A DNA stretch of 64,000 bases, from IMG/VR virus record IMGVR_UViG_3300045988_175036, positions 52,290 through 116,289 of that record. One strand, 5' to 3'. The translations under genes and the position numbers were made by a program. The stretch comes from a virus. The notes beneath the pieces are model-generated. The model ran no database searches. It saw only the letters and a list, made by a program, of their open reading frames with translations, and was not told the DNA's origin. This document shows positions 1,323 through 52,043 of the stretch, piece by piece. Position 1 is the first letter of the stretch. Every line of letters starts with the position of its first letter.

Positions 1323-3551
1323 TTAGTTACAGTGAGAGTAACCGCATTCCTTACAGATATCGCAGCCGCCGCTATGCTCCAAAACCGCGTCGCACTCTGG
1401 ACAACGCTCTCCGAACTTTTGTGATTTCTTTTTCTTTGGTTCCTCTAAATATCCCAATTCTTCTTGAACTTCTTTCCACATATCCATCAGTGCATTGCCT
1501 ATTGCCATTGGGCAACACGCGCCCTTAGATGTATCATGCTTTGTGGCTGTCCTAATAGCATAACTAGGACAAGCACCAGTTGAATTGAGCTGGTCTTGAA
1601 TATCATTTATGCTAACTCCAGCTCTACAGGCAAGAGAAACCATTCGAGATAATCCAACCATATAGTTGGAACATCCCCCCAAACTACCTTTTGTAAAGAA
1701 CACTTCAACTAAATCACCATAAACTGGTTCAAAGAACCCAAGAACATGAGTTGAGCCGCAACCATTGATTATTTTTCTTTTCTTTCCAATCAAGTCGTCC
1801 GCACACTTCATAATTTCTCCACGTTTTAATTCTTTATGAGAAATTTCTTCTTCTTTTTTATTTTCTGTAGTCAAAATGCCAAGGCGCTTACAACCATCTC
1901 TGAACATGGTAATACCTTTACACCCAGACGACCAAGCAAGTAGATACATATGTGCAATATCATCTTTAGTTGCAGAATTTGGCATATTTACTGTAGAACT
2001 AATTGCTGTATCAACATGTTTTTGCATTACAGCTTGTGTTAGCACTCTACTCTGCCAAGAGATATCAGCTGAACCGACAAAATAATCTGGTAGCTCTTTT
2101 GTATTATTTATCTCCATATATTCGCGTGCTGCTTTACAATAAACATCGTAGTAGGCATCTTCTCCATCTGTCATGCCTACTGTTCTTCTTGTATATTTTA
2201 GCGCAAATTCTGGCTCACAACCACCACTTTCTCCTAGTAGAGTAGCTAATGAACCAGTTGGAGCAATTGAAACTAAACTACAATTTCTTAAGCCATATTC
2301 TTTTAGTTTAGTTATTTCATCAGGACTAAAATGAAATTTTATGATATCACTATCAAAAATTTCTTCTTTGTATTTTGGATACGGACCGAACTCTTTTGCC
2401 AATTCGTTGCTTGCAAGGACCGCGCGTCTAAAGATAAGAGAAAAGACATCATCAGTAAATTCAATAGCCTCTGGCGAGCCATATCGGAAGCCGAGCTTCA
2501 TAAGGGCCGTTGCATAGCCAAAGATACCTAGGCCAATATTTCTATAGTTATAAGACATATCTCTTTGCTGTTGTAAAGGGTGTCTGTTATAATTTTCATC
2601 AATAAGTTTATCAAGAGTTTTAATACCAACATCAATTGCCGATAGTAAGTCCGCTGTATTGAGGTGAGCTTGTGGTGTATAAGGGTTTACAATAAATTCA
2701 GAAAGATTCAGGGAAGATAGACAGCAAGCGCCATGTTTGGGGAGCGGTTGCTCGCCACAAGGATTACAAGTCTCAATCTCATAATCTTCATCGAATTGCA
2801 TCAAATTATAATTTCTAAATTTGTTGGTAAAGAGGCAAGCGGGGTCAGCCCAATCATAACAATTATCAACTAGCATTTTGAAAATTTCGATTGGGGTAAC
2901 ATCATATTCTATTTCATGCCCGGAGTAGTTTCGCTTTTCGTGTAGTACTACAACTTCTCCAGTGTCATAATATTTCTCAACAGCTCGCATAAATTCGTCA
3001 TCAAGTTCAAGAGACAAATTGGCTTTTTCAATTTCCCCTTCTTTTGACTTTATTTTTATAAAAGTCTCTGCTTCTTTATGCCGTGCGTCAATAGAAAGCA
3101 TTAGCGCACCCTTGCGCGCACCTCCTTGTGAAGTTCCCGCTGTGACTTCATTGAAAATTTTCATAAAAGGAACAATTCCATCAGAATAGTATTCAGTTTT
3201 TATTGGAGTTCCCTTTGGGCGTAATTTTGTAAGAGAAATTCCTTGGCCGCCTTGTGCTTTGAAAGTAATGCCAATGTCTTTTGCGGCATCCATAATGTCG
3301 TAGTAATCATCTTCAATATACCCTCTTGAATAACAATTGAATAAACTGCCAGTATTATTAAGACCTCTATTTGCTAAAGTGCGCCCGCCCATCAAGAACT
3401 TTTTCTCGATAATTAGTTTTCGTAATTCATTATCTCCTGCACTTACTCTATCTAGCCATTCTTCAAAACTTTCATTATTGTGTCGATATTTACGTTGCCA
3501 GATGTCTTGCGCGAGTTGATTATTTTCTCCAAGCCAATCCTTTACGGTCAT
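1323..3551 (-). CDS. nrdJ: class II (adenosylcobalamin-dependent) ribonucleotide reductase
   Basis: Active-site TCNPCGEQPL. C-terminal Cys-rich zinc finger CPECD...CDICKECGYSHC, typical of class II RNRs. Start refined to ATG 3551 (GGAGG 7 nt upstream, ATGA overlap with the upstream stop). Confidence 0.85.
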   Translation of the reverse strand: MTVKDWLGENNQLAQDIWQRKYRHNNESFEEWLDRVSAGDNELRKLIIEKKFLMGGRTLANRGLNNTGSLFNCYSRGYIEDDYYDIMDAAKDIGITFKAQGGQGISLTKLRPKGTPIKTEYYSDGIVPFMKIFNEVTAGTSQGGARKGALMLSIDARHKEAETFIKIKSKEGEIEKANLSLELDDEFMRAVEKYYDTGEVVVLHEKRNYSGHEIEYDVTPIEIFKMLVDNCYDWADPACLFTNKFRNYNLMQFDEDYEIETCNPCGEQPLPKHGACCLSSLNLSEFIVNPYTPQAHLNTADLLSAIDVGIKTLDKLIDENYNRHPLQQQRDMSYNYRNIGLGIFGYATALMKLGFRYGSPEAIEFTDDVFSLIFRRAVLASNELAKEFGPYPKYKEEIFDSDIIKFHFSPDEITKLKEYGLRNCSLVSIAPTGSLATLLGESGGCEPEFALKYTRRTVGMTDGEDAYYDVYCKAAREYMEINNTKELPDYFVGSADISWQSRVLTQAVMQKHVDTAISSTVNMPNSATKDDIAHMYLLAWSSGCKGITMFRDGCKRLGILTTENKKEEEISHKELKRGEIMKCADDLIGKKRKIINGCGSTHVLGFFEPVYGDLVEVFFTKGSLGGCSNYMVGLSRMVSLACRAGVSINDIQDQLNSTGACPSYAIRTATKHDTSKGACCPMAIGNALMDMWKEVQEELGYLEEPKKKKSQKFGERCPECDAVLEHSGGCDICKECGYSHCN

Positions 3552-26949: not shown

Positions 26950-28005
26950 TTGGAGCTAAGCAAAACTCAAGAAGAAATTTTGGCGTCATCTGCTTCTGTT
27001 GTATTTGTTCAATCTTGTGCGAGTAGCGGGAAAACGAGATTATTGACTGAGAAAATTCGCCAATCTATCTCGCGTGCGAAAAAGCTGGTAGCTTTTACTT
27101 TTACAAACATGGCGGCAGCAGAAATTCGTAGTAGATTGAATGTTGAAAATAGTGATGTAATTTGGATCGGCACTATCCATTCTTACTGCGCGAGATGCTT
27201 GTTGCGCGCGGGAATTACAGAAGCAGGAAAGTATTTGAATAATGAAAATTTTGATGGTCTTTTTGACCTTGCGCGAAGCCATCCAAGGGCTTTTCCTTCT
27301 TTAGACATTTGCCTACTGGATGAAGCGCAGGATAGTAATGAAGATCAATTCAATTTTATTTTTTCAATTATCAAAAGTGCGGAATACTTTGTAGTTTATG
27401 ATGAGCGGCAGTCTATTTATCGATGGAATGGAAGTAGACCAGATCTTTTGAAATATTGGGCTTACGAACTAAACGCTTCTATTTATTCAATGGATGAAAA
27501 TTATCGTAATGGTAGCGATATTCTTGATTTTGCGCGGGATATTATTAGAAAAAATAAAATGAGTGATTTATCTATTCCGATGCGTGGAGTGCGTGGGAGG
27601 GTCATTGAAGTTCCTTTTTCTATCAAGTATCTTGTTGATGAAATCAAGTCCACTTCTAATTATGGCGATTGGATGGTGCTCGCGCGCACGAATGCGGAAG
27701 TAGATAATATTTTTGATAAGTTGACTGATGCTGGAATTCCATGCGATACATTCAAGCAAGGTGACCTGTCAAAAGATGAGCTAAGCGAAAAAATGAAAGC
27801 AGATACTGTGAAGGTTCTTACCATTCACTCAAGCAAAGGACTTGAGACACGCTATGTAGCTGTATATGATAGCCGGATGTGGAACGAAGAAGAAGTCTGT
27901 ATTTCTTATGTTGCGGCGACTCGCGCGCGTGATCGCCTAATTTGGTTTACTAAACCAGTTGTAAAAAAGAAACCTCGAAGAAACTCAATGACGAGTTGGG
28001 AGTAA
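26950..28005 (+). CDS. UvrD/Rep-family helicase (compact, 351 aa)
   Basis: Walker A CASSGKT, Walker B LLDEAQD, and the C-terminal motifs TIHSSKGLE and YVAATRARDRL. Confidence 0.75.
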   Translation: MELSKTQEEILASSASVVFVQSCASSGKTRLLTEKIRQSISRAKKLVAFTFTNMAAAEIRSRLNVENSDVIWIGTIHSYCARCLLRAGITEAGKYLNNENFDGLFDLARSHPRAFPSLDICLLDEAQDSNEDQFNFIFSIIKSAEYFVVYDERQSIYRWNGSRPDLLKYWAYELNASIYSMDENYRNGSDILDFARDIIRKNKMSDLSIPMRGVRGRVIEVPFSIKYLVDEIKSTSNYGDWMVLARTNAEVDNIFDKLTDAGIPCDTFKQGDLSKDELSEKMKADTVKVLTIHSSKGLETRYVAVYDSRMWNEEEVCISYVAATRARDRLIWFTKPVVKKKPRRNSMTSWE

Positions 28006-28007
28006 AT

Positions 28008-28934
28008 ATGGAAAAAATATCAGCATTACTTTTTATGGTTTCTGCTGTTGTTTTTCTAATTCTTTTCATTGGACAAAAAAAGAAAATAAAGCAAAAAAAT
28101 TATGAAATTGAGCAACTAAAAGAAAAGAATAAAAAAGATGCTGAAAATTTTTGGAAAGACTTGGATGTGGCAGAACAAAAAGTTTATGAAGATAATCACA
28201 AAAAGAGAAATGAGCGACTTCAGCAATTGAATGAAATTATTGCTAAGCAAGAAACTTTTCAAGTGAATAGAAAATCTTCAATTGAAGAAGAAATCCAAGA
28301 ACTCCGTTTACAAAAGCTTCAGCAGCTTCAAAATCAGCTTATCATAGATAAAGCGCAAATTGACCAAGATAAAAGAGATTATGAATTAGAACTTGAAAAG
28401 GTGAAGTGCGAACTTTCTCAATTTCAAGCAAAGCGCCAAGCAGTGAATGAAGCGATTCGGCGCGAGCGTGAAGTTGAGGAAAAAGAGGATTTCTATCGCA
28501 TTTGTCTTTTGCCAGAAGAAATTGAAGATATAGAAGTCTTGAAAAGTTTGGCACCAAGGCTTCGGCATCGTGAAATAGTTCCAAAACTAATGTGGGATAC
28601 AATGGTTTCGCGTGCGACGAAGGAAATGATAAAGCGAGTAACAGGTGGCCGCGCAGTTGGTGGTATTTACAAAATTACCTATATTCCAACTGGTGAATCT
28701 TATATTGGGAAAACGACTGATTTTGGAACACGTTGGCAATCACACGTCCAAACCGCGCTTGGTATGGAGAAAGTTGCTCGTTCAACTCTTCATGTACATA
28801 TGGCTTCTCATGGAATTCAAAACTATACTTTTGAAATTTTGGAAGAGGTTGCGCGCGAAAAGCAAACAGAAAGAGAAAAATTTTATATTGAGCTTTATGG
28901 GACGCAAAAACAGTTGAATATGAGGATTGGTTGA
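28008..28934 (+). CDS. N-terminal transmembrane (TM) helix, long coiled coil, C-terminal GIY-YIG nuclease domain
   Basis: Hydrophobic N-terminus ISALLFMVSAVVFLILFI, about 150 aa rich in E/K/Q heptads, then GGIYKITYIPTGESYIGKTTDFGTRWQSH. Confidence 0.65.
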   Translation: MEKISALLFMVSAVVFLILFIGQKKKIKQKNYEIEQLKEKNKKDAENFWKDLDVAEQKVYEDNHKKRNERLQQLNEIIAKQETFQVNRKSSIEEEIQELRLQKLQQLQNQLIIDKAQIDQDKRDYELELEKVKCELSQFQAKRQAVNEAIRREREVEEKEDFYRICLLPEEIEDIEVLKSLAPRLRHREIVPKLMWDTMVSRATKEMIKRVTGGRAVGGIYKITYIPTGESYIGKTTDFGTRWQSHVQTALGMEKVARSTLHVHMASHGIQNYTFEILEEVAREKQTEREKFYIELYGTQKQLNMRIG

Positions 28935-29750: not shown

Positions 29751-30842
29751 ATGAGTTTTATAATTGATGGCGTTGATTTTGAAAATCTTGAAGCTGAGAA
29801 GTATTGGAGTTTTACTTCTTCCTATACGCCTGAAAGAAAGAAACGAGAAGCAATCAACATGGTTTATTCTGGAGATTATCTTGGGGCGCGGAAGATGGAC
29901 GGAGCGTATTATCGAGCTATAATCTCTGAGGATGGCGAACTTCGTCTACAAGGCCGATCTAAGTCCGTAAAGGGAGGATACCTAAACAAAATTGATTGGG
30001 TTCCTCATTTGAAGTCTTTCTTTGAGGCTCTTCCGCGAGGAACCTGTTTACTTGGCGAAGTCTACTTCCCAAAGAATGAAGGTTCTTATAACACAACTAC
30101 AATTATGGGCTGTCTTGCGCCTAAAGCAGTCGCGCGCCAAGAAACAGGAGAAAAACTTCACTATTATGTTTTTGATATTTGGGCTTATGACGGAGAAAGC
30201 TATTTGAATAAGACAGCAGAAGAGCGTTTTACAATGATTCAGAATCTTCCCAAGTCAGATTATGTTGAGTTTGCTCAATACTATGAAGGCGCTGAGTTGT
30301 GGCAGAAATATCAAGAAATTTTGGCTGAAGGTGGAGAAGGTGTTGTTATTACTCGACGTGATTCTAAACCACAACCCGGTAAACGCAGCGTGCGGAAGAC
30401 TCTTAAACTGAAGAAAGAACTTCAAGAAACACTTGATGTCTTTATCTATGGTGGAAATCCTCCGACCCGTCTTTATTCTGGAAAAGAAATCGAAAACTGG
30501 CAGTATTGGCAAAATACTGTTACGCATGAACTTATGTGCGGCGACCATTATAAGGAATATTTTGAGGGTGATACAATTGAACCTGTCACAAAAATGTATT
30601 ATATGCGTGGTGCTGGTAGTCTAAAGATTGGCGCGTATAAGGATGGAAAACCGGTTCAGATTGGTAGTTTGAGTGGTTTAGATGATGAGATTTTGTTGAA
30701 TTGGAAGGACTATATTGGGAAGGTCGCAGAGGTTACTTGTATGGAGGTTCTGCCTACAGGAGGATTGCGCCATAGTCGTTTCTTAGGTTGGCGCGTCGAT
30801 AAGGTTCCTCGCGATTGCCAGTGGGAGACAATTTTTGGTTGA
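29751..30842 (+). CDS. ATP-dependent DNA ligase
   Basis: Motif I RKMDG, III LLGEVYF, IIIa YYVFDIW, IV EGVVIT, V LKLKK, VI LRHSRFLGWRVDK. Confidence 0.85.
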   Translation: MSFIIDGVDFENLEAEKYWSFTSSYTPERKKREAINMVYSGDYLGARKMDGAYYRAIISEDGELRLQGRSKSVKGGYLNKIDWVPHLKSFFEALPRGTCLLGEVYFPKNEGSYNTTTIMGCLAPKAVARQETGEKLHYYVFDIWAYDGESYLNKTAEERFTMIQNLPKSDYVEFAQYYEGAELWQKYQEILAEGGEGVVITRRDSKPQPGKRSVRKTLKLKKELQETLDVFIYGGNPPTRLYSGKEIENWQYWQNTVTHELMCGDHYKEYFEGDTIEPVTKMYYMRGAGSLKIGAYKDGKPVQIGSLSGLDDEILLNWKDYIGKVAEVTCMEVLPTGGLRHSRFLGWRVDKVPRDCQWETIFG

Positions 30843-32830: not shown

Positions 32831-32859
32831 TTGAAACTTTTGAAAAATTTTGATATAAT
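32831..32859 (+). promoter_or_regulatory. sigma-A type promoter, conserved cassette
   Basis: TTGAAA, 17 nt, TGaTATAAT, then ATTTATAGAAAATAAAGGAGG. Confidence 0.7.
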
Positions 32860-32888
32860 ATTTATAGAAAATAAAGGAGGCAGAAAGA

Positions 32889-33550: not shown

Positions 33551-34448
33551 GTTGCTACGAAAATATGGTGCGCATCAAGATAAAATCCAAGAATTTGTTG
33601 GAAGATTTCCAAATGGTGTTGAAGCACTAGACTTTCTTGAAGAAATTGGCCCTGAAGCGATTGCTGGTAATTATAGTCCATGGCTTGAGGCATTATACTG
33701 GGGTTACCGAATGCTACCCTGGACCACCAAAGAAAAAGAGAAATACTGTGAAGTTTTGAATATTGATAGTTCTTCTAGCGTCTATGAAAGTTATGATGTA
33801 GAAGAAAGTGAAAAAGTTATTCATTCTGATCACATTTATTTGAGCGGAAACATTGATAACTGTAGTAATATTAGAAATAGTAATTACGTTGCTTCTAGTG
33901 CTACAGTTGAAGGAAGTGACGGTGTCCTAAAGTCAGAATATATTGTGAATAGTAGTCTAGTTGATACTGGAATGGACATTCAAAGTTCAAAAGAAATTTA
34001 TAAAGCATCACATGTGAAGAAAAGTCAGAAGTGCGCGCGAGTCGATAGTATTGAGAATTGCGTCGGAATTTTCAGTTCTTCTGGATGTGAAGAGGTCTAT
34101 TACTCTTCTTTTATGAAGAATTGTCATCATTGTCTTTTCTGTGATGATATTGAGGATGCTTCTTTTAGAATCTTCAACCAACCAGTGCCTGAGAAGGATT
34201 TCTTCGTAATTCTTTCGATGGTTGAGAGCTATTTTGATAACAAGCTTGAACCTTTGATTGAAACTACAGTAAATGACGAATTTTATTTTGGCCTTGATTG
34301 GCATGTTTCGACGCACTTTACAAAGATTTACAGAAGCCTGTCGCAGGAGGTTTTCAATCAACTTTATAGACTACCTGGTTATAATGACTGGCTGATGTAT
34401 CAGATTACATTGAATACTCTGAGTTTTCGAGATTTGAAAAATAGCTAA
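33534..34448 (+). CDS. hypothetical protein with a repetitive S/N/C-rich central region
   Basis: ORF track; AAGGAG 7 nt before ATG 33534. Confidence 0.5.
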   Translation: MYLTVELLRKYGAHQDKIQEFVGRFPNGVEALDFLEEIGPEAIAGNYSPWLEALYWGYRMLPWTTKEKEKYCEVLNIDSSSSVYESYDVEESEKVIHSDHIYLSGNIDNCSNIRNSNYVASSATVEGSDGVLKSEYIVNSSLVDTGMDIQSSKEIYKASHVKKSQKCARVDSIENCVGIFSSSGCEEVYYSSFMKNCHHCLFCDDIEDASFRIFNQPVPEKDFFVILSMVESYFDNKLEPLIETTVNDEFYFGLDWHVSTHFTKIYRSLSQEVFNQLYRLPGYNDWLMYQITLNTLSFRDLKNS

Positions 34449-34462
34449 ATTTCGAGTATAAT
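34434..34462 (+). promoter_or_regulatory. sigma-A type promoter, conserved cassette (drives the RNA island)
   Basis: TTGAAA, 17 nt, TATAAT, then ATTTATACAAAATGG. Confidence 0.65.
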
Positions 34463-34496
34463 ATTTATACAAAATGGTTGAGGAAAGGAAAAAGAA

Positions 34497-34631
34497 ATGA
34501 CTTATCATTGGAAGACAGAAGTAGCAATTCTTGAAAATCGCATCCATCTTCTTGAACAGCGTGGAGATAACGTGCCAATTGTCTCAAAGTTGAAGCGACG
34601 ACTAAGAAAGCTATTATCTAGCTCTTATTGA
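34497..34631 (+). CDS. small ORF (44 aa, basic C-terminus), not in the ORF track
   Basis: AGGAAAGGAAAAAGAA then ATG. Encodes MTYHWKTEVAILENRIHLLEQRGDNVPIVSKLKRRLRKLLSSSY. Confidence 0.35.
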   Translation: MTYHWKTEVAILENRIHLLEQRGDNVPIVSKLKRRLRKLLSSSY

Positions 34632-34957
34632 GCTATTTGGCGCACGACAGAAACTTACCGTGAATGTCTGAAGTGGCCTCAGTTGGGAAGGCTTACCAGC
34701 TTTATAAAAACCGAGCAATCAAGACAAAGTATTAGCTACACTTTGAGGAAGCAAAGAGGTGGGCGGGAGTCGGCTCTCCCGTAGCTAGAAACCGATTACA
34801 GGGTTAAGCGCAAGACGCTTAGGCCAAGCTATGATGTCATATTTCCGGGGCAATTTCGGTAGTATGACGGAGCTTTTGTCAAGGGTTAGGAGATTTCCAC
34901 AGATTGCCTAGGGGTCTACCTCGTAGGAGACTACCGAAAGAAAATCTCCATCTTTAT
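34632..34957 (+). ncRNA. ORF-free GC-enriched structured spacer A
   Basis: Hairpins GGGAG-tcgg-CTCCC and TAAGCG-caaga-CGCTTA. Long-range pair TCGGTAGT (34856) with ACTACCGA (34931). Downstream of the 34434 promoter. Confidence 0.4.
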
Positions 34958-35052
34958 CCTGCCTTAGCACAACGGTAGTGCAACCGGTTTATGCCCGGCA
35001 TACGGCTCCAGATTAGGGCGCGATCTCGGTTCGAATCCGAGGGGCAGGACCA
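34958..35052 (+). tRNA. atypical 95-nt tRNA-like gene; anticodon loop UUUAUGC (UAU, Ile-type) with a 25-nt extra arm and encoded CCA
   Basis: Acceptor CCTGCCT/GGGCAGG, D arm GCAC-AACGGTA-GTGC, anticodon stem CCGG/CCGG, T arm CTCGG-TTCGAAT-CCGAG. The extra region does not fit class I or class II rules. Confidence 0.5.
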
Positions 35053-35255
35053 AAGGTATCCAAACTACCTTAATCGTTTGGTGAGGACTCAAGTTACTAA
35101 AGTTAGGTCAGCTTGACATCCAACAGAGACGACCTACACAGGTGAGACAGGTGAGAATGACGGCTTAGTCCTTTCTTGAATAAACAGAACCTGACCCGTT
35201 TTGGCGCCAAGGGTGAACGCTGCTTGAAGGTAAAGAAAGGCAATAAATTTTATAT
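35053..35255 (+). ncRNA. ORF-free structured spacer B
   Basis: No ORF; GC-enriched; lies between two tRNA(-like) genes. Confidence 0.35.
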
Positions 35256-35332
35256 GGGAGCATAGCTCAGTTGGTTAGAGCGCATGACTGTTAATCATGA
35301 TGTCGAAGGTTCAAGTCCTTCTGTTCCCGCCA
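35256..35332 (+). tRNA. tRNA-Asn (GUU)
   Basis: GGGAGCA TA GCTC AGTTGGTTA GAGC G CATGA CTGTTAA TCATG ATGTC GAAGG TTCAAGT CCTTC TGTTCCC G CCA. Confidence 0.9.
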
Positions 35333-35617
35333 AATGATGGCGAGTAGTGCGAATAGAAAAGATAAGAACGAAATAGTACCTTTTATGGTGGATAAACCTA
35401 TTATTCACTTATTGAATCTATTGGAGTCACGCACGGCTCCGCTTGCTATCATTACCAACGGATAAAACTTGTTGTGAGCAAACTTACAAGTTACCTTTTT
35501 GACCTCACAAACAACTATGCAAGCATATCTTACGCGCAAACTAGATATGACTCCCTCTGGGAGAAAGGTGATTGCGCGGCCGGTTAGCGCTCCTGTCTAA
35601 GTTCAAAGCGCGTTATA
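35333..35617 (+). ncRNA. ORF-free structured spacer C
   Basis: No ORF; GC-enriched; lies between tRNA genes. Confidence 0.35.
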
Positions 35618-35684
35618 TCCCCTTTTAGTGTAATGGTTAGCACAGCAATTGAGGGCAAGAGTGGTTCGATCCCACAGAGGGGAG
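35618..35684 (+). tRNA. degenerate tRNA-like element lacking an anticodon arm (67 nt, no CCA)
   Basis: Acceptor TCCCCTT/GAGGGGA, D arm GTGT-AATGGTTA-GCAC, T arm GTGG-TTCGATC-CCAC. Only about 16 nt (containing CAATTG) sit where 23 are expected. Confidence 0.3.
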
Positions 35685-35764
35685 TCAAAGATAAAATTAT
35701 CTTTTCTACACGGAGAAACTATTGATTCCGAAAACTATCCAATACAAATTGAAAGGAAATTTTT

Positions 35765-36025
35765 ATGGAAAAGATTTTTGAACTCTGTAAAGAGCGTGAT
35801 ATCAGGTGTTATTTCAGTTATTGGAAGCTCGACGATTCTATTCATTTTGCTTTCACTAGAACATTTGCTGGCCAAGATTGTAAATTTATACAGGTCGTTC
35901 CGATCAAGGATATTAATAATAATTCTCATGTTATCGGACAGTACATTGCAGAACTTATTGAAGACAAGCTGTCGGATGAGAATTGTAGAAAAATGATTCT
36001 CGACAGAATTGAAAAGCTTCTTTGA
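35765..36025 (+). CDS. hypothetical protein (86 aa) inside the RNA island
   Basis: ORF track; AT-rich like the other coding DNA; AAAGGA RBS. Confidence 0.4.
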   Translation: MEKIFELCKERDIRCYFSYWKLDDSIHFAFTRTFAGQDCKFIQVVPIKDINNNSHVIGQYIAELIEDKLSDENCRKMILDRIEKLL

Positions 36026-36097
36026 AATCTATTTTTATAATAAGAAAAATAGGTACACTACTTCTTTTATGTTTCGTAGTAGCTGGATTTATAAATA

Positions 36098-36175
36098 TCC
36101 TCTATTGGTGTAATGGTAGCACACTTCCCGTCAAGGAAGAGGGGTCGGTTCGATTCGATATCCTGCATAGAGGAC
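36098..36175 (+). tRNA. degenerate tRNA-like element
   Basis: Perfect acceptor TCCTCTA/TAGAGGA and D arm GTG-TAATGGTAG-CAC. Anticodon stem CTTCC/GGAAG has a 6-nt loop CGTCAA. The T arm is disrupted (GTCGG-TTCGATT-CGATATCCTGCA). Confidence 0.3.
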
Positions 36176-36361
36176 GGCTTGACACAGCCGGAGTGTTATC
36201 TCTGGCATACGGATTAGCGTATGCAAAGCATTTGTCTTCGGATGGTAAAATGCGAGAGAAGTCATCCCCTTGAACTTCTCACTACATACATCCCCAGCGG
36301 TTGTTATGCTGAGACCGATGGCGCGACGGTCGTTTATAATATCGCGCCATTTGTCTAAAAT
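36176..36361 (+). ncRNA. ORF-free structured spacer D
   Basis: Hairpins GCATACG-gattag-CGTATGC (36205-36224) and ATGGCGCGA-N15-TCGCGCCAT (36318-36350). 36185-36217 resembles 34981-35016. Confidence 0.35.
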
Positions 36362-36397
36362 GCGGGTGTAGTATAATGGTTATTATGTCTGCCTTCC

Positions 36398-36861
36398 TTC
36401 TAAACTTAATGCGTTAGATATATATGGAGCAATTATCAACTCAATTTAAAGGCGATGTGACTGAACTTTTAGTTAGTGCATATTTACTAAAATTAGGTTA
36501 TGTAGTATCTAAACCTTTAACCCAAGATAGTAAATATGATTTAATTGTAGATATTAACCATAAGTTAATTCGTATTCAGGTTAAAACTGCAAGACTAAAT
36601 GATCGGACCATTGGCAAAAGTATTAAGTTTAATTGTAGAAGTACCACAAACAATGTAAGAGAATGCAAACAGCGATATTATTCGCCAGAAGATGTAGATT
36701 ATTTTGCAACATATTGGGATAATGTAGTATATTTAATCCCAGTTACTGAATGTAGTGCTGAGAAAATTTTATGGATAGATAAGCCTACATATAAAAACAG
36801 TTGTTTTGCAAATGATTATCTGGCAGAGGAGGTATTACAACGCATTTAAGCATTGGAAGGG
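36398..36861 (+). mobile_element. homing-endonuclease cassette / atypical tRNA intron
   Basis: The ORF fills 426 of 464 nt. The ends form a helix: 36405-36415 with 36839-36850, and 36393-36397 with 36855-36859. Confidence 0.6.
36424..36849 (+). CDS. PD-(D/E)XK homing endonuclease, I-Ssp6803I-like
   Basis: FKGDVTELLVSAYLLKLGYVVSKPLTQDSKYDLIVDINHKLIRIQVKTAR matches the intron-associated PD-(D/E)XK endonuclease family pattern. Confidence 0.7.
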   Translation: MEQLSTQFKGDVTELLVSAYLLKLGYVVSKPLTQDSKYDLIVDINHKLIRIQVKTARLNDRTIGKSIKFNCRSTTNNVRECKQRYYSPEDVDYFATYWDNVVYLIPVTECSAEKILWIDKPTYKNSCFANDYLAEEVLQRI

Positions 36862-36984
36862 AAGCAGAAGATGGGGCTTCGATTGCCCTCACTCGCTCCA
36901 CCGCCCCATGGGAAGTTTGCCTCCAATAAGTCTCATGACCACTACTAGATTGCACTAGTTGACTGAATAAAGGTGGTTTTATAT

Positions 36985-37061
36985 GCACTTGTAGCTCAGT
37001 TGGTAGTAGCAATTGCCTTTTAAGCAATGGGTCGGGCATTCGAGTTGCCCCAAGTGCACCA
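36985..37061 (+). tRNA. tRNA-Lys (UUU)
   Basis: GCACTTG TA GCTC AGTTGGTA GTAGC..., anticodon arm CAATTGC CTTTTAA GCAATGG, T arm GGGCA TTCGAGT TGCCC, then CAAGTGC A CCA. Confidence 0.9.
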
Positions 37062-37141
37062 CTTTATTTGGAATCAATAGCTTGTCCACCTTTGGGCGAC
37101 CCGTAATAGCCGGACATTTGAAAATTTCTTCTCGTAAATGT

Positions 37142-37170
37142 TTGAAATTTTTCTGATTTTTTGATATAAT
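37142..37170 (+). promoter_or_regulatory. sigma-A type promoter, conserved cassette
   Basis: TTGAAA, 17 nt, TGaTATAAT, then ATTTACAGAAAGTGAGGG. Confidence 0.65.
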
Positions 37171-37196
37171 ATTTACAGAAAGTGAGGGAAACGAAA

Positions 37197-37373
37197 ATGG
37201 AAACTGAAACTCCGTGGAAGCCCGAAGTAAAGAAAATGTCTCCCGAACAACTTGAGAAGTGGACGGCGCTCCGTAAAAAGTGTCAAGTCTTTCCTTCTCG
37301 AAAACCATATTCGCGCAAAATCAAACATAAAAATCGAGAAAAAGAAAAAGAAAAAGAAGAAAACGAAATTTGA
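37197..37373 (+). CDS. small, highly basic protein (58 aa)
   Basis: ORF track frame; ATG 37197 after GAGGGA. Encodes METETPWKPEVKKMSPEQLEKW...KEKEKEENEI. Confidence 0.35.
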   Translation: METETPWKPEVKKMSPEQLEKWTALRKKCQVFPSRKPYSRKIKHKNREKEKEKEENEI

Positions 37374-37398
37374 AAAACTTCTAAAATTTTGGTATAAT
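37370..37398 (+). promoter_or_regulatory. sigma-A type promoter, conserved cassette (drives 1.6 kb of non-coding RNA)
   Basis: TTGAAA, 17 nt, TGgTATAAT, then ATTTATACAAGATGAGAG. Confidence 0.65.
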
Positions 37399-37489
37399 AT
37401 TTATACAAGATGAGAGAGAGAGGAACTGGTCTTTTCCTTTCTACCAGTTCCTCTCTCAGAAAGTCCTAATGTGGCTTACTTGAAAACTA

Positions 37490-37563
37490 TCCGATGTAGT
37501 TCAACTGGTTAGAACACCGCATTGATAAAGCGGAGCTGTCGGTTTGAGATCCGGCCTTCGGGT
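37490..37563 (+). tRNA. tRNA-Ile (GAU)-like, irregular
   Basis: D arm GTTC-AACTGGTTA-GAAC and anticodon loop TTGATAA. There is an A.A pair at 31:39, an 8-nt T-loop (GTCGG-TTTGAGAT-CCGGC), a U.U mismatch in the acceptor stem, and no CCA. Confidence 0.45.
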
Positions 37564-37959
37564 AGTTGGTAAGCAGTCCCAAGCCTGCATAAACACAGAG
37601 GGAGACTAATAGCGGTATTACAGTGGCCAATGTAATATCCAAAATTTCGAGACAGGCAAGTCTTCAGGCAGTAGATGTCTGATAAAACAACGACGGCGAA
37701 GGAGTCGCGACCTTCGGAGGAGCCGAGATAAACCTACGGGGAACCGCCATCGGAGAAAAGGAATTTATTAGTCAAATCAGTTTCGTGGTTCTGGGACTCA
37801 AAACCACCTCGCGCAGTTCTTACGGCGCAATATAAATAGGATGGGCGCTATCTGACATGGCGTGACGTTCAGAAGTTTCGATGCGTGGGCTTACCTATAA
37901 AACTCATGCTGGGTCTTTGGAGCCTTTTACCTCCTGTGTGAAACAAAAGGCTCGTATAT
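37564..37959 (+). ncRNA. ORF-free structured spacer G (about 395 nt)
   Basis: Hairpins ATTACA-N8-TGTAAT, CGAAGG-N8-CCTTCG, GTGGTT-N11-AACCAC and GAGCCTTTT-N17-AAAAGGCTC (37918-37952). Confidence 0.4.
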
Positions 37960-38045
37960 GCAAGTGTGGTGGAAATGGCATACACATCTGATTCAAGCTC
38001 AGATGCCCACTGGGATTAAGGGTTCGACTCCCTTCACTTGTACCA
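37960..38045 (+). tRNA. tRNA-Leu (CAA), class II
   Basis: GCAAGTG ... TCTGA TTCAAGC TCAGA, 14-nt variable arm TGCCCACTGGGATT, T arm AAGGG TTCGACT CCCTT, then CACTTGT A CCA. Confidence 0.85.
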
Positions 38046-38966
38046 GAAATTCGTGTCCCGCTAAGCTCTATAATGATTGTGGCGAGGCTAAGGCGTTGGC
38101 AGATAAGGGGCAACCGCACGAATTAGAATATTGCGCAGGTCGTCTAACAGTAGGACGCCAGACTCATTATCTGGAGACAACGTGCAACTCGTTCGTGCGC
38201 AACCATTCGCTTTGGCGAAACTCTCGTAGAGGATGGATTTTACGGTTCAACTACCACCGGCTTCCGAGCCCGACCGCTATGGCTGACAACGAAGATATGT
38301 GGCTTTGTCATTTGCCGAGAGTATAATAAATAAAAACGAAAGCAAACCGTTTATTTGTTCCTTGAAAATAAAATATCTTAGAACTCGATGACAAACATTC
38401 TGTGACTAGGAATGTCGAGGCGTTTTGAAAAGGGCGGCAGACAACGAACAAGGATACTTGTGGATACTGACCGGTGCGCGTGACGTGAGTTGCGTGCCAG
38501 AGAGGATGGACTCCCAACCCTAAGAGGCGGCATCGAGATTAACGCGAGTAAAGGTAGGACGCGCGTCGCTGGCGTAATAGAGGCTTTCAAGATAATTGAG
38601 AGCTGAATCCTAATCTCCCTTAGTTGGTGACTGTGGGTAAATCATTTGATTAGGAAATAACCACAAGCCAGTTTGTTGTGAAGCGAAGAAATTCGTGTAT
38701 AAGACGTGTATGTGGCCTCTGAGTAGCCAAAGACAAGCACAATAATGATTATTGATAATAAAAATCAAGAACTTGCTGAATGGCTGGTGAAAGGTTCTGG
38801 TAATCAATCCAGAAGAGACTACGCGCACGAAGGTGCGGCTATGGGAAGTATGCGCGGGACGCTGCGTATGCTCAGCCCCATGGTGCTCTTGACTGAATAT
38901 ACTTGAAGTTAGTTTTCGGTAGGTTGAAGAACCCATAGATATTTTATTTTCAGGGAACAAATCCCT
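38046..38966 (+). ncRNA. large ORF-free structured region H (about 920 nt), candidate giant ncRNA(s)
   Basis: GC-enriched; only short overlapping track ORFs on both strands. Long-range pair 38048-38055 with 38117-38124. GAAATTCGTGT is repeated at 38046 and 38688. Ends at the 38967 terminator. Confidence 0.45.
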
Positions 38967-38994
38967 TTTGACGGAAAGGAACGTCAAAATTTTG
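38967..38994 (+). terminator. intrinsic terminator closing the RNA island
   Basis: TTTGACG-gaaaggaa-CGTCAAA followed by ATTTT. Confidence 0.5.
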
Positions 38995-39016
38995 AAATGA
39001 TAGGAGAGGAACTATT

Positions 39017-39307
39017 ATGGCAAGATTTTATAGCGATATTACAAACAAGCTCTACGATAGCATGGATGACCTTGAAGAGGCTGAAAAGAAGATTATCGCA
39101 AAACAAGAAGAGAAAAGAGTGGCAGAACAGAAGCGTGCAGACGAGCGCAAAGTTCGCGCACAGGAAATTGATGAACTGCAAAAGACTTATGTAGAGGCAC
39201 GAAAGGCGTATACAGAAGCTCTTGAGAAATTCTGTAATGATTACGGAACTTTTCACACCTCCATTTCTTCTGATAATCTTTTCGATTTTCTTTGGAGTTG
39301 GATGTAA
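39017..39307 (+). CDS. coiled-coil protein (96 aa)
   Basis: ORF track; AGGAGAGG RBS; E/K-rich helix. Confidence 0.55.
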   Translation: MARFYSDITNKLYDSMDDLEEAEKKIIAKQEEKRVAEQKRADERKVRAQEIDELQKTYVEARKAYTEALEKFCNDYGTFHTSISSDNLFDFLWSWM

Positions 39308-39312
39308 TAGGA

Positions 39313-39341
39313 ACGCGCCCTTGACTGGGCGCTTTCTTTTT
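39313..39341 (+). terminator. intrinsic terminator
   Basis: GCGCCC-ttgact-GGGCGC followed by TTTCTTTTT. Confidence 0.65.
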
Positions 39342-39371
39342 ATCAAAATAGAAATATAAAGGAGAAAACGA

Positions 39372-39572
39372 ATGACGCTTTATTTCGACAATGGATATGA
39401 GCCGAGGCGGCCTATTGGTCATCCTAGCACTAAGGAAAGTGCGTATCAACTGGTTTACAAGTTTTTAGAGGAGCACAACTATAAGGCCCCCTATACAAGA
39501 GAATGGACAAATGACATCAATGAGACTTGGATTGATGTTGGAAGCCACACAGAATTCTTTATTTGGTGCTAA
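39372..39572 (+). CDS. hypothetical protein (66 aa)
   Basis: ORF track; AAAGGAG RBS. Confidence 0.5.
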   Translation: MTLYFDNGYEPRRPIGHPSTKESAYQLVYKFLEEHNYKAPYTREWTNDINETWIDVGSHTEFFIWC

Positions 39573-51987: not shown

Positions 51988-52016
51988 TTGAAAAACAACC
52001 AAAAATCTGATATAAT
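51988..52016 (+). promoter_or_regulatory. sigma-A type promoter, conserved cassette
   Basis: TTGAAA, 17 nt, TGaTATAAT, then ATTTATAGAAAATGAAGGAGG. Confidence 0.7.
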
Positions 52017-52043
52017 ATTTATAGAAAATGAAGGAGGAAAACG

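Follow-up and report, generated by a model that had tools for sequence, protein, structure and literature searches.

What does a gut/rumen phage make from 4.5 kb of strongly promoted and largely ORF-free DNA, and what becomes of the tRNA gene within it that is interrupted by an endonuclease gene? The region lies in a 64,000-nt stretch of viral DNA (the window) and is an operon of tRNAs and structured RNAs (Table 1). Taken as a whole, it is best explained as a phage tRNA and non-coding-RNA expression island with a ribozyme-free intron in tRNA-Gly, a reading that we hold to be reasonably probable. The split tRNA-Gly is the most unusual and most interesting feature of the region.

A preliminary description had three promoter cassettes firing into the island and a hairpin terminator closing it, and both are present. 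A promoter scan gave 11/12 sigma-70 matches at 34434, 37142 and 37370, and the extended cassette TTGAAA-N17-TATAATATTTA occurs five times in the window against zero expected, three of the five copies being inside the island. The terminator was read from the sequence; an automated hairpin scan reported it at 38966-38989 on the minus strand only. The RNA parts are GC-enriched as described (0.44-0.49, compared with 0.33-0.40 in flanking coding DNA), and dips to 0.30-0.35 coincide exactly with the small ORFs and the endonuclease ORF. These four (44, 86, 58 and 141 aa), already singled out in that description, are the only credible ORFs. Other long ORFs, of 120-125 aa, were rightly discounted as genes, since they overlap tRNA, S8 or ROOL DNA or cross the terminator on the minus strand into the next gene. 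From its own consensus promoter, present in three copies, the phage would transcribe the plus strand as far as the terminator. The precursor would most likely be cleaved at tRNA ends by host RNase P and RNase Z, freeing about seven tRNAs for A/U-rich codons (AUA, AAY, GGA, AAA, UUG and AUG) and at least three stable structured RNAs: drum, a new pseudoknot RNA of about 140 nt (S8) and ROOL.

Table 1. Features of the island, in window coordinates.
Feature	Position	Strand	Remarks
Promoter cassette P1	34434..34462	+	TTGAAA-17-TATAAT, then ATTTATACAA
Small ORF, 44 aa	34497..34631	+	kept in relatives; no family match
drum RNA (RF02958)	34826..34953	+	full model 1-112; 56.9 bits, gathering score 43
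tRNA-Ile(UAU)	34958..35052	+	19-nt enlarged variable region; encoded CCA
tRNA-Asn(GUU)	35256..35332	+	canonical
tRNA-like relic	35618..35684	+	anticodon arm truncated; ARAGORN with relaxed threshold only
Small AT-rich ORF, 86 aa	35765..36025	+	frameshift-free in 6 relatives; no family match
tRNA-like relic	36099..36175	+	Rfam tRNA 22.5 bits, sub-threshold; anticodon and T arms aberrant
Spacer S4	36171..36361	+	four simple 5-8 bp hairpins; fold z -4.0
tRNA-Gly(UCC) exon 1	36362..36397	+	nt 1-36, anticodon at its end
Intervening sequence, 464 nt	36398..36861	+	no ribozyme; 426 nt coding
I-Ssp6803I-type PD-(D/E)XK homing endonuclease, 141 aa	36424..36849	+	PF11645 84 bits; PDB 2OST 8e-10
tRNA-Gly(UCC) exon 2	36862..36900	+	nt 37 to CCA
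tRNA-Lys(UUU)	36985..37061	+	canonical
Promoter cassette P2	37142..37170	+	
Small ORF, 58 aa	37197..37373	+	rich in lysine and glutamate; kept in all relatives
Promoter cassette P3	37370..37398	+	
Long 5'-proximal hairpin just 3' of P3	37415..37458	+	about 15 bp in consensus; enclosing segment 37399-37488 z -3.3
Aberrant tRNA-like element	37489..37564	+	ARAGORN: Ile-GAU; Rfam 44.7 bits
Twister-ribozyme relic and covarying hairpin	37566..37642	+	relic P4-L4-AUAAA-P2'-GAGGG at 37573-37605; hairpin 37614-37640
tRNA-Leu(CAA)	37960..38045	+	canonical type II
tRNA with CAU anticodon, Met or Ile2-like	38132..38205	+	Rfam 43.7 bits; ARAGORN at relaxed threshold only
S8 RNA, ~140 nt	38215..38355	+	P1 ACTCTCG/CGAGAGT; P2 CCAC/GTGG; pseudoknot ACGGTT/AACCGT
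ROOL RNA (RF03087)	38360..38953	+	full length, model 1-574; 285.9 bits, gathering score 99.1
Hairpin terminator	38966..38989	+	TTTTGACG-GAAAGGAA-CGTCAAAA-TTTTG; T run 3' of hairpin; read from sequence

The Rfam search and ARAGORN gave six to seven tRNAs and two tRNA relics. Four canonical tRNAs and four aberrant elements had been claimed: Asn, Lys and Leu are indeed canonical and Gly is real but split, while the aberrant elements number five (34958, 35618, 36099, 37489 and 38132). The counterpart of tRNA-Ile(UAU) in relative L002 is a normal tRNA of 76 nt. An A/T-rich TATAT leader precedes six of the nine tRNA(-like) 5' ends, a majority as described.

The tRNA-Gly gene is split exactly 3' of anticodon nucleotide 36 by an insert of which only 38 nt (26 + 12 nt) lie outside the ORF. 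The preliminary description noted this homing-endonuclease ORF and missed its place within the anticodon loop. In seven relatives (L003-L008 and L012) 36397 is joined directly to 36862, and splicing tRNA-Gly in silico reproduces exactly the intronless alleles found in L004, L005 and L012. The insert RNA would form a rod: positions +1 to +6 of the insert pair with -9 to -4, its final three nucleotides, GGG, pair with the anticodon UCC, and the ORF is enclosed by a further stem of 36405-36415 with 36839-36850. When the whole precursor of 539 nt is folded, its minimum-energy structure is this same rod, with pair probabilities of 0.80-0.99 in the junction helix. The endonuclease AUG lacks a Shine-Dalgarno (SD) sequence upstream; GAGGAGG stands at 36825-36831, 16 nt 5' of the stop codon. 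Rfam returned no group I or II intron at E<=5 at this locus and none at E<=0.5 in 10 other intron loci. We found no description in the literature of such a tRNA intron, with a homing endonuclease and without a self-splicing ribozyme.

Related inserts, twenty of them distinct, interrupt tRNA genes for Gly, Thr, Ser, Asn and Asp. Endonucleases 37-94% identical to that of the island occupy the same position. The junction helix common to all twenty is 90% paired, compared with 58% in shuffles (0 of 500 reach 90%) and 29-46% when the helix is slid; nine of ten pairs change on both sides, and G-U pairs are many. An SD-like motif is found upstream of the AUG in 0 of 25 cases and at the 3' end of the ORF in 22 of 25, where conservation is of the nucleotide sequence and spans different reading frames. 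The same element lies within tRNA-Asn of Enterococcus phage EFP01. Its predicted junction sequence is matched over at least 80% of its length by 31 records, 29 of them other Enterococcus phages; among the matches listed, 10/10 cover the junction uninterrupted, over annotated or unannotated tRNA-Asn.

Pairing of the anticodon with the last three intron bases, and of the intron's 5' end with its 3' end, sets the two junctions 3 bp apart with a 3' stagger. From this model we infer that proteins may remove the insert. The rod would be the substrate of excision by a double-strand RNA endonuclease of host or phage origin, or by the encoded nuclease itself, and an RNA ligase would then join the exons. 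The endonuclease may be translated from the folded or circularised intron, the 3'-located SD being brought to the AUG. We identified no candidate for the excising RNA endonuclease or for the RNA ligase; a single ligase was seen (29751-30842), and its best matches are ATP-dependent DNA ligases. PMC3424549 gives the family only as homing endonucleases, with no further detail used here. To our knowledge, DNA cutting is the only known activity of PD-(D/E)XK homing endonucleases of this family.

The insert might instead stay unspliced, as a selfish gene that knocks out a dispensable phage tRNA-Gly and whose helices serve the endonuclease mRNA through stability, RNase III processing or translational control. 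It is carried by just 2 of 11 island variants, which may mean that tRNA-Gly is not needed and has simply been disrupted, and relatives differ freely in their tRNA content. The failure to identify a ribozyme, a splicing enzyme or an ORF-less mini-intron fits this reading, as does family member L027, whose anticodon stem is broken. However, anticodon and intron-terminal triplet covary in tRNAs of five identities, and the midpoint of the helix coincides exactly with the exon-intron junction; mRNA stability alone would require neither. The reconstructed exons are intact cloverleaves in 20/21 cases, here identical to intronless alleles, and endonucleases as divergent as 37% identity persist at the same position. 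We consider an unspliced insert somewhat unlikely.

The insert can be set beside two known intron systems. PDB 2OST is I-Ssp6803I, which we take to be encoded by a group I intron of Synechocystis tRNA-fMet; there, as here, a PF11645 endonuclease lies within a tRNA anticodon loop. I-Ssp6803I reportedly cuts DNA beside the anticodon triplet, leaving 3-nt 3' overhangs, the same geometry as the insert's two RNA junctions. The Synechocystis intron has a ribozyme core of about 200 nt. Self-splicing here, by an unrecognised very small ribozyme of rod plus tRNA body or by a group I intron with its core overlapping the ORF, would agree with the residence of this founding member in a group I intron and with CAAAC and GCATTG, which form a conserved asymmetric internal loop beside the splice sites. 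It is nevertheless highly improbable: the non-coding part is so short, the ORF interior is 30% GC, the encoded proteins have diverged down to 37-40% identity, and Intron_gpI has no match in 11 loci. There is also no conserved terminal G, the last intron base being G, T, A or C and the last exon base C or T.

Archaeal bulge-helix-bulge introns with homing-endonuclease ORFs are spliced by EndA and RtcB and released as circles. Like the insert, they are ribozyme-free, have the ORF closed off by a stem, and have a short helix whose two strands carry one splice site each, with a 3' stagger; release as a circle, as in these introns, would explain the SD at the 3' end of the ORF. They differ in having a central helix of 4 bp rather than 3, flanked by 3-nt bulges where the neighbours here are paired, and in lying at position 37/38 rather than 36/37. 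We know of no EndA homologue in bacteria or their phages.

The preliminary description proposed the spacers as candidates for large ornate or new RNAs, which holds for ROOL, drum and S8. The Rfam search that it had proposed returned the first two at full length, and both are retained in 8/8 relatives scanned. ROOL (fold z-score -5.3) is already known to adjoin phage and prophage tRNA arrays (Weinberg 2017, PMC5737381; Kretsch 2025, PMC12286853). The island copy is likewise on the same strand directly 3' of tRNAs and differs in nothing essential; it is the last gene of the promoter-to-terminator unit. The drum RNA has the conserved blocks GGAGC, GGGUU, CCACA, UAGG and CCGAAAGAAAA. In published drum RNAs the 3' end is a Rho-independent terminator (PMC5737381), whereas here 4 nt separate the drum RNA from a downstream tRNA, so that tRNA processing would generate the 3' end.

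S8 has no Rfam match and is, as judged from covariation, a pseudoknotted RNA. A covariance model search found 12 copies from about five phage lineages, each with tRNAs on both sides or with a tRNA on one side and ROOL on the other; S8 lies directly 5' of ROOL in 6/10 relatives. P1 and P2 are 99.2% paired, compared with 72% in shuffles, and in 9/11 pairs both partners have changed. The pseudoknot was left out of the covariance model and is 95.8% paired, compared with 82%.

The other spacers are not ornate RNAs. They are a mosaic among close relatives of simple covarying hairpins, tRNA relics and a truncated twister, mostly without thermodynamic signal, and about 1.3 kb of them is present in just 0 to 9 of 10 close relatives. 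The dense hairpins that had been described are borne out by fold z-scores in S4, around 37415-37458 and in S3 (z -2.4). In S1, S2 and S6 folding is no better than in shuffles or coding controls, which may mean that some of the spacer sequence has no function. Conservation with covariation, which the spacers were expected to show, is seen in S8, in two of the four S4 hairpins (compensatory changes in L007 and L012) and in hairpin 37614-37640, also with compensatory changes. Everything besides ROOL, drum and the tRNAs could be debris of decayed tRNAs, ribozymes and endonuclease scars spread by recombination, even S8 and the hairpins having no role of their own. Module presence from 0/10 to 10/10 among close relatives, the relics at 35618 and 36099, the truncated twister and the unremarkable folding of S1, S2 and S6 all suit such a reading. 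It is unlikely, however, in view of these compensatory changes and of S8, which retains three helices through fully compensatory changes at a fixed place between tRNAs, and a tblastn search of the window's spacers turned up no remnants of endonucleases.

Islands of the ten close relatives span 3.0-6.5 kb, differ in which modules they contain, and have GIY-YIG and HNH endonuclease genes between their tRNAs. The island would thus also be a landing zone for homing-endonuclease genes, which would account for its mosaic, spacer-rich layout. The relatives' genes resemble the free-standing homing endonucleases of T4/T5-type phage tRNA regions and give the same mosaic pattern; those endonucleases adjoin tRNA genes, whereas the PD-(D/E)XK gene here sits within one.

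The twister relic (22.8 bits, under the gathering score of 39.9) is invariant among relatives and homologous to a type-P1 twister of relative L035 (58 bits). It shares with known twisters (Rfam clan CL00120) the P4/L4 motif UCCCAAGC, then AUAAA and GAGGG, but lacks the cleavage site and the 5' strands of P1 and P2, in whose place the tRNA-like element stands.

The tRNA-Gly(UCC) gene of the island is interrupted by a 464-nt insert, located between anticodon nucleotide 36 and nucleotide 37. In intron mode, ARAGORN reported a single tRNA-Gly with a 464-nt intron; the spliced form is a cloverleaf in which the anticodon loop has 7 nt and the CCA is encoded. With the insert removed, the gene is identical to the intronless alleles of three relatives (L004, L005 and L012). 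Ten close relatives, with flanking proteins 94–100% identical to those of the window, made up the comparison set; position 36397 is joined directly to 36862 in seven of them (L003–L008 and L012), and only L009 shares the insert. Such presence/absence polymorphism at an exact site is a homing signature, the uninterrupted allele being carried by the seven relatives and by ten Enterococcus phages listed in full.

Almost the entire insert is coding. An ORF of 426 nt (~30% GC) specifies a 141-aa protein and leaves 26 and 12 nt of non-coding sequence. The protein matches PF11645 with 84 bits (cut-off 26.1) and I-Ssp6803I (PDB 2OST) with an E-value of 8.3e-10, and residues D39, D43, Q52 and K54 of the D...QxK motif are invariant across 18 sequences. 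Its 167 homologues share 52–94% identity, and every context that could be reconstructed has the gene at the same site in tRNA-Gly(UCC), Thr(UGU/AGU), Ser(GCU), Asn(GUU) or Asp(GUC) of large phages. Rfam gave no match to Intron_gpI or other intron families at E≤5 in 34000–39500, nor did intron family models at E≤0.5 in ten other intron-bearing loci. Given 38 non-coding nucleotides and no intron family match, the insert cannot be recognised as an intron of group I or group II. The ends likewise argue against group I, as the terminal G and the 5′-exon U are not conserved among 20 members (last intron base G, T, A or C; last exon base C or T). No Gly-type mini-intron lacking the ORF turned up in a search for such elements. 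To our knowledge, every tRNA intron described from bacteria and phages is a self-splicing one of group I, and we found no description of phage tRNA introns without a ribozyme in the open-access literature searched.

The same element occurs in Enterococcus phage EFP01 (KY549443.1; L127 1433–1970, record 105243–105780), a cultured Schiekvirus of Enterococcus faecium. Its tRNA-Asn(GUU) is split after nucleotide 36 by a 463-nt insert (105278–105740) encoding a PF11645 endonuclease; the ORF is annotated as ‘hypothetical protein’ and the tRNA has no annotation. At least 80% of the predicted uninterrupted junction sequence was matched by each of 31 phage records, 29 of them from other Enterococcus phages. 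The ten listed in full contain it in one uninterrupted piece, which lies over an annotated tRNA-Asn in nine.

At the RNA level, all members share one architecture, a rod. The intron ends in three bases complementary to the anticodon (GGK with UCC; ACA or AUA with UGU; AGC with GCU and GUU; GGC with GUC), and intron positions +1 to +6 or +7 pair with −4 to −10. A conserved asymmetric internal loop, CAAAC opposite GCATTG, follows, and a second stem of 5–13 bp then joins the leader to the stop-codon region, with the ORF looped out. To evaluate the junction helix, 20 distinct junction constructs were aligned without gaps, their splice sites being taken from tRNA numbering only. The helix is 90% paired, compared to 58% in shuffles (0 of 500 reach 90%) and 29–46% in slid controls, and both sides have changed in 9 of 10 pairs. 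The many G-U pairs indicate a constraint on the RNA of the + strand. The second stem differs wholly in sequence between members, and its pairing is always kept. The minimum-energy fold of the whole 539-nt precursor is the same rod, with junction-helix pair probabilities of 0.80–0.99. In this fold, one continuous helix would carry a junction on each of its two strands, with a separation of 3 bp and a 3′ stagger.

The Shine–Dalgarno (SD) motif of the endonuclease gene is displaced. Among 25 distinct members, the 20 nt preceding the AUG never contain an SD-like motif, but in 22 the final 35 nt of the ORF include GGAGG or GAGG. This motif is conserved at the nucleotide level despite a different reading frame (L040 compared to L041). 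Relative to the second stem, the motif precedes the 3′ strand by a median of 6 nt and the AUG follows the 5′ strand at a median distance of 8 nt, a placement suggesting that only folding of the RNA or circularisation of the intron juxtaposes the two.

The insert therefore has an exact insertion site, intact exons, no known ribozyme, a covarying rod and a displaced SD. We consider it probable that it is spliced at all and, if it is, a protein route is strongly favored. Each intron would essentially be an I-Ssp6803I-type endonuclease gene placed after anticodon nucleotide 36, with the rod formed with the anticodon as splicing substrate. A dimeric protein nuclease would cut both rod strands at two sites 3 bp apart, possibly the encoded nuclease itself acting on an RNA mimic of its own DNA site, and a ligase would then join the tRNA exons. 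The translated form may be the excised, possibly circular or stem-closed intron, as only there would SD and AUG meet. I-Ssp6803I reportedly cuts DNA beside the anticodon, leaving a 3-nt 3′ overhang; the rod junctions have the same stagger, and the exon side of the rod would mirror the DNA half-site. The ligase encoded in the window was considered as an RNA ligase candidate and set aside, as its best matches are ATP-dependent DNA ligases.

The element resembles two known systems in part. The Synechocystis tRNA-fMet intron has a like endonuclease and location, whereas the intron here is without a ribozyme. Archaeal endonuclease-bearing BHB introns share the logic, with splice sites on opposite strands, a 3′ stagger and an ORF looped out by a closing stem. 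However, the BHB geometry of two 3-nt bulges and a 4-bp helix does not apply: the central helix here has 3 bp (anticodon and last three intron nucleotides), and the flanking 33:37 and +1:−4 positions are paired in nearly all members rather than bulged.

A widespread ribozyme-free intron with a precise covarying junction helix has one of two implications. The first is an unknown protein-based route of tRNA splicing in bacteria or phages, which might provide a natural substrate for bacterial RNA ligases such as RtcB. The second is that a selfish gene keeps an elaborate RNA structure for another reason, as would be the case under the chief rival explanation, an unspliced insert that selfishly disrupts a dispensable tRNA, which we regard as unlikely. 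The full splicing model is less likely than not: an undescribed class of ribozyme-free tRNA introns in Firmicutes phages, cut by protein at the rod and religated, with a circular or stem-closed intron uniting SD and AUG, carried by gut and rumen Oscillospirales phages and by the Enterococcus Schiekvirus EFP01. If true, it would be tRNA splicing in the bacterial world by archaeal or eukaryotic-like logic. The presence of the element in a cultured phage makes the question directly testable. The main value of the island lies in this ribozyme-free endonuclease intron family and secondly in the S8 RNA described below; the split tRNA matters more than either the S8 candidate family or the ROOL and drum RNAs.

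S8, a spacer of ~140 nt, has no Rfam match at E≤5, and nhmmer linked it to two unrelated phage contigs. Pattern scans of metagenomes returned three lineages only, already known; reaching beyond these required a covariance model, which found 12 copies in about five lineages. P1 is ACTCTCG/CGAGAGT here and AGAGTGC/GCACTCT, AGTTCGT/ACGAACT or ATGCTC/GAGCAT in other lineages; P2 is CCAC/GTGG, CTAC/GTAG or CTCC/GGAG; and the pseudoknot is ACGGTT/AACCGT, TCGGTT/AACCGA, TCGTTT/AAACGA or TCAGTTT/AAACTGA. In an alignment fitted to the covariance model, and thus leaning towards structure, P1 and P2 are 99.2% paired compared to 72% in shuffles and 27–47% in slid controls, with both sides changed in 9 of 11 pairs. 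The pseudoknot, which is outside the model, is 95.8% paired (82% in shuffles). RNAalifold on the raw MAFFT alignment missed P1 because that alignment is out of register. In every lineage, S8 either has a tRNA 0–40 nt away on each side or sits between a tRNA and ROOL, so it would be freed as a discrete RNA by tRNA processing. S8 is a candidate new RNA family. It extends the set of RNAs without an explained role (ROOL, GOLLD, drum), and we know of no function for any of these three.

The preliminary description of the region as promoter-driven, GC-enriched, largely non-coding and terminator-closed was confirmed. Its three promoters match sigma-70 at 11 of 12 positions on the + strand in a promoter scan. 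The cassette, TTGAAA-N17-TATAATATTTA, has five copies in the 64-kb window compared to none in 100 shuffles, and with three of them inside the island this 4.5-kb stretch is fed by three; the two copies outside are exact. Non-coding parts of the island have a GC content of 0.44–0.49, compared to 0.33–0.40 in flanking genes, and minima of 0.30–0.35 coincide exactly with the small ORFs. Direct reading of the sequence bore out the closing terminator, TTTTGACG-N8-CGTCAAAA-TTTTG; the automated hairpin scan reported this hairpin for the − strand only. The longest ORFs (120–125 aa) are spurious: some overlap DNA of tRNAs, S8 or ROOL, and others, on the − strand, extend through the terminator into the next gene. 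The three small ORFs and the flanking 305-aa and 96-aa proteins had no match in Pfam or PHROGs.

The source of the window is a large phage of about 100–120 kb with its own Pol III alpha, gyrase, DnaB, RNR, DNA ligase, PhoH and ClpP. Blastn of the island against 50,697 GenBank phages gave matches of tRNA size only, indicating no annotated close relative there. Elsewhere in the window, directly after a UvrD-like helicase gene, an ORF of 312 aa has a GIY-YIG domain at its C-terminus and may be a further homing endonuclease or a fusion.

Features of the island and related elements in the window
Feature	Position	Strand	Basis
312-aa GIY-YIG ORF	27996–28934		
Ligase	29751–30842		
Promoter cassette, outside island	32831–32864	+	exact copy
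Island	34434–38994	+	
Promoter cassette	34434 (start)	+	promoter scan
S1 spacer	34632–34825		
drum RNA (RF02958)	34826–34953		Rfam, 56.9 bits (gathering score 43), model 1–112 of 112
tRNA-Ile(UAU), enlarged variable arm	34958–35052		ARAGORN/Rfam
S2 spacer	35053–35255		
tRNA-Asn(GUU)	35256–35332		ARAGORN/Rfam
Degenerate tRNA-like relics	35618–35684, 36099–36175		relaxed threshold
S4 spacer	36171–36361		
tRNA-Gly(UCC), split	36362–36900		ARAGORN, intron mode
Insert	36398–36861		comparison to relatives
Endonuclease ORF	36424–36849		PF11645
SD-like motif in ORF	36825–36831		
tRNA-Lys(UUU)	36985–37061		ARAGORN/Rfam
Promoter cassette	37142 (start)	+	promoter scan
Promoter cassette P3	37370 (start)	+	promoter scan
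Aberrant ‘Ile-GAU’ tRNA-like element	37489–37564		ARAGORN/Rfam
S6 spacer	37565–37959		
Twister-P3 match	37566–37642		22.8 bits (gathering score 39.9)
tRNA-Leu(CAA)	37960–38045		ARAGORN/Rfam
tRNA with CAU anticodon	38132–38205		ARAGORN/Rfam
S8 RNA (candidate)	38215–38355		covariance model
ROOL RNA (RF03087)	38360–38953		Rfam, 285.9 bits (gathering score 99.1), model 1–574 of 574, E 1.6e-64
Terminator	38966–38989		sequence reading
(T)ATAT leaders	35247–35255, 35609–35617, 36092–36098, 36976–36984, 37951–37959, 38124–38131		
Promoter cassette, outside island	51988–52021	+	exact copy

The tRNA set combines ARAGORN and Rfam, six tRNAs reaching Rfam gathering thresholds. A (T)ATAT leader lies directly 5′ of six of the nine tRNA or tRNA-like genes, as had been noticed, and may be a processing context or the boundary of recombining modules. 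Large ornate RNAs had been proposed for the spacers, and one is present, a full-length ROOL 154 nt 3′ of a tRNA within the phage tRNA island. ROOL beside phage tRNA arrays is a published context of the family (PMC5737381; PMC12286853), and other members form a homo-oligomeric nanocage by cryo-EM (PMC12286853). The ROOL identification holds, though there is nothing unusual in it. ROOL, drum and the overall island are of known kinds. The drum RNA has its conserved blocks. In contrast to the published drum description, its 3′ neighbour is a tRNA beginning after 4 nt and not a terminator; sequence reading and scanning found no hairpin and T run, and hence no Rho-independent terminator, at the drum 3′ end. 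Both RNAs are retained in all eight relatives scanned. The island is a compact promoter-to-terminator case of tRNAs that would be expressed together with ROOL, drum and one more conserved RNA.

The proposal was not borne out for the other spacers. S1, S2 and S6 have unremarkable fold z-scores, between −0.5 and −1.25, on a par with coding controls, and the suggestion of new RNA classes is supported for the covarying S8 and not for these three. Clear fold z-scores were obtained for ROOL (−5.3), S4 (−4.0), the segment with a hairpin after P3 (−3.3) and S3 (−2.4). S4 consists of simple hairpins, two of which have their pairing preserved by compensatory changes in relatives L007 and L012.

The sub-threshold twister match within S6 is best read as a relic. 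Its P4-L4-AUAAA-P2′-GAGGG half is invariant across all relatives, and this half (relic at 37566–37605) is homologous to a type-P1 twister in a more distant relative (L035 5950–6016, 58.2 bits). Here the tRNA-like element takes the place of the cleavage site and of the strands that would form P1 and P2, and the part 3′ of the twister half evolves as a plain hairpin. A type-P3 twister was rejected on three counts: a covarying hairpin holds the GCCAAU motif in its loop, three changes in the P3 stem are uncompensated, and the complete L035 homologue is type P1, with P1/P2 5′ strands from upstream sequence absent in the window. A complete twister (CL00120) was rejected as well, since changes in L007 disrupt P2 and L2. 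A pattern scan for the module found close relatives only. In other phage tRNA islands, the L035 match and one at L043 2566–2616 (41.1 bits) fall just under the type-P1 gathering score of 67.2.

The island is a mosaic. The relatives come from human-gut and rumen metagenomes, and the binning of related elements puts them in MAGs of Oscillospiraceae, Acutalibacteraceae and Ruminococcus. Among the ten relatives, island length varies from 3.0 to 6.5 kb, and single window segments are kept in anywhere from none to all ten. Segments absent from the window encode free-standing GIY-YIG and HNH homing endonucleases between tRNAs. This presence and absence of modules, together with endonuclease genes between the relatives' tRNAs, indicates that the long, unusual spacers are largely the product of endonuclease-driven recombination, which likewise occurs in T4- and T5-type tRNA regions. 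The window spacers themselves are not endonuclease scars, as tblastn with the relatives' GIY-YIG and HNH proteins found no decayed copies in the island.

Phage tRNA islands of this kind recurrently gather self-cleaving ribozymes and homing endonucleases. In a separate contig (L027 1–6432; ENA ERZ27249389 NODE_39), PF11645 inserts occupy neighbouring tRNA genes, Asp (1557–1964) and Gly (3001–3432, with a degenerate anticodon stem), followed by a GIY-YIG gene and then by a DUF2828 gene apparently split by a NUMOD3 endonuclease ORF. Another phage tRNA island has an HDV-like ribozyme match (CPEB3 model; L092 6260–6347) of 40.3 bits, over the gathering score of 35, ~300 nt 5′ of its S8 copy. Other intron-bearing phage tRNA islands gave further matches: a GOLLD-like match at L037 5976–6395 (108 bits, under the gathering score of 150; E 1.6e-27) and sub-threshold Y-RNA-like (YrlA) matches at L029 164–283 and L036 1010–1129.
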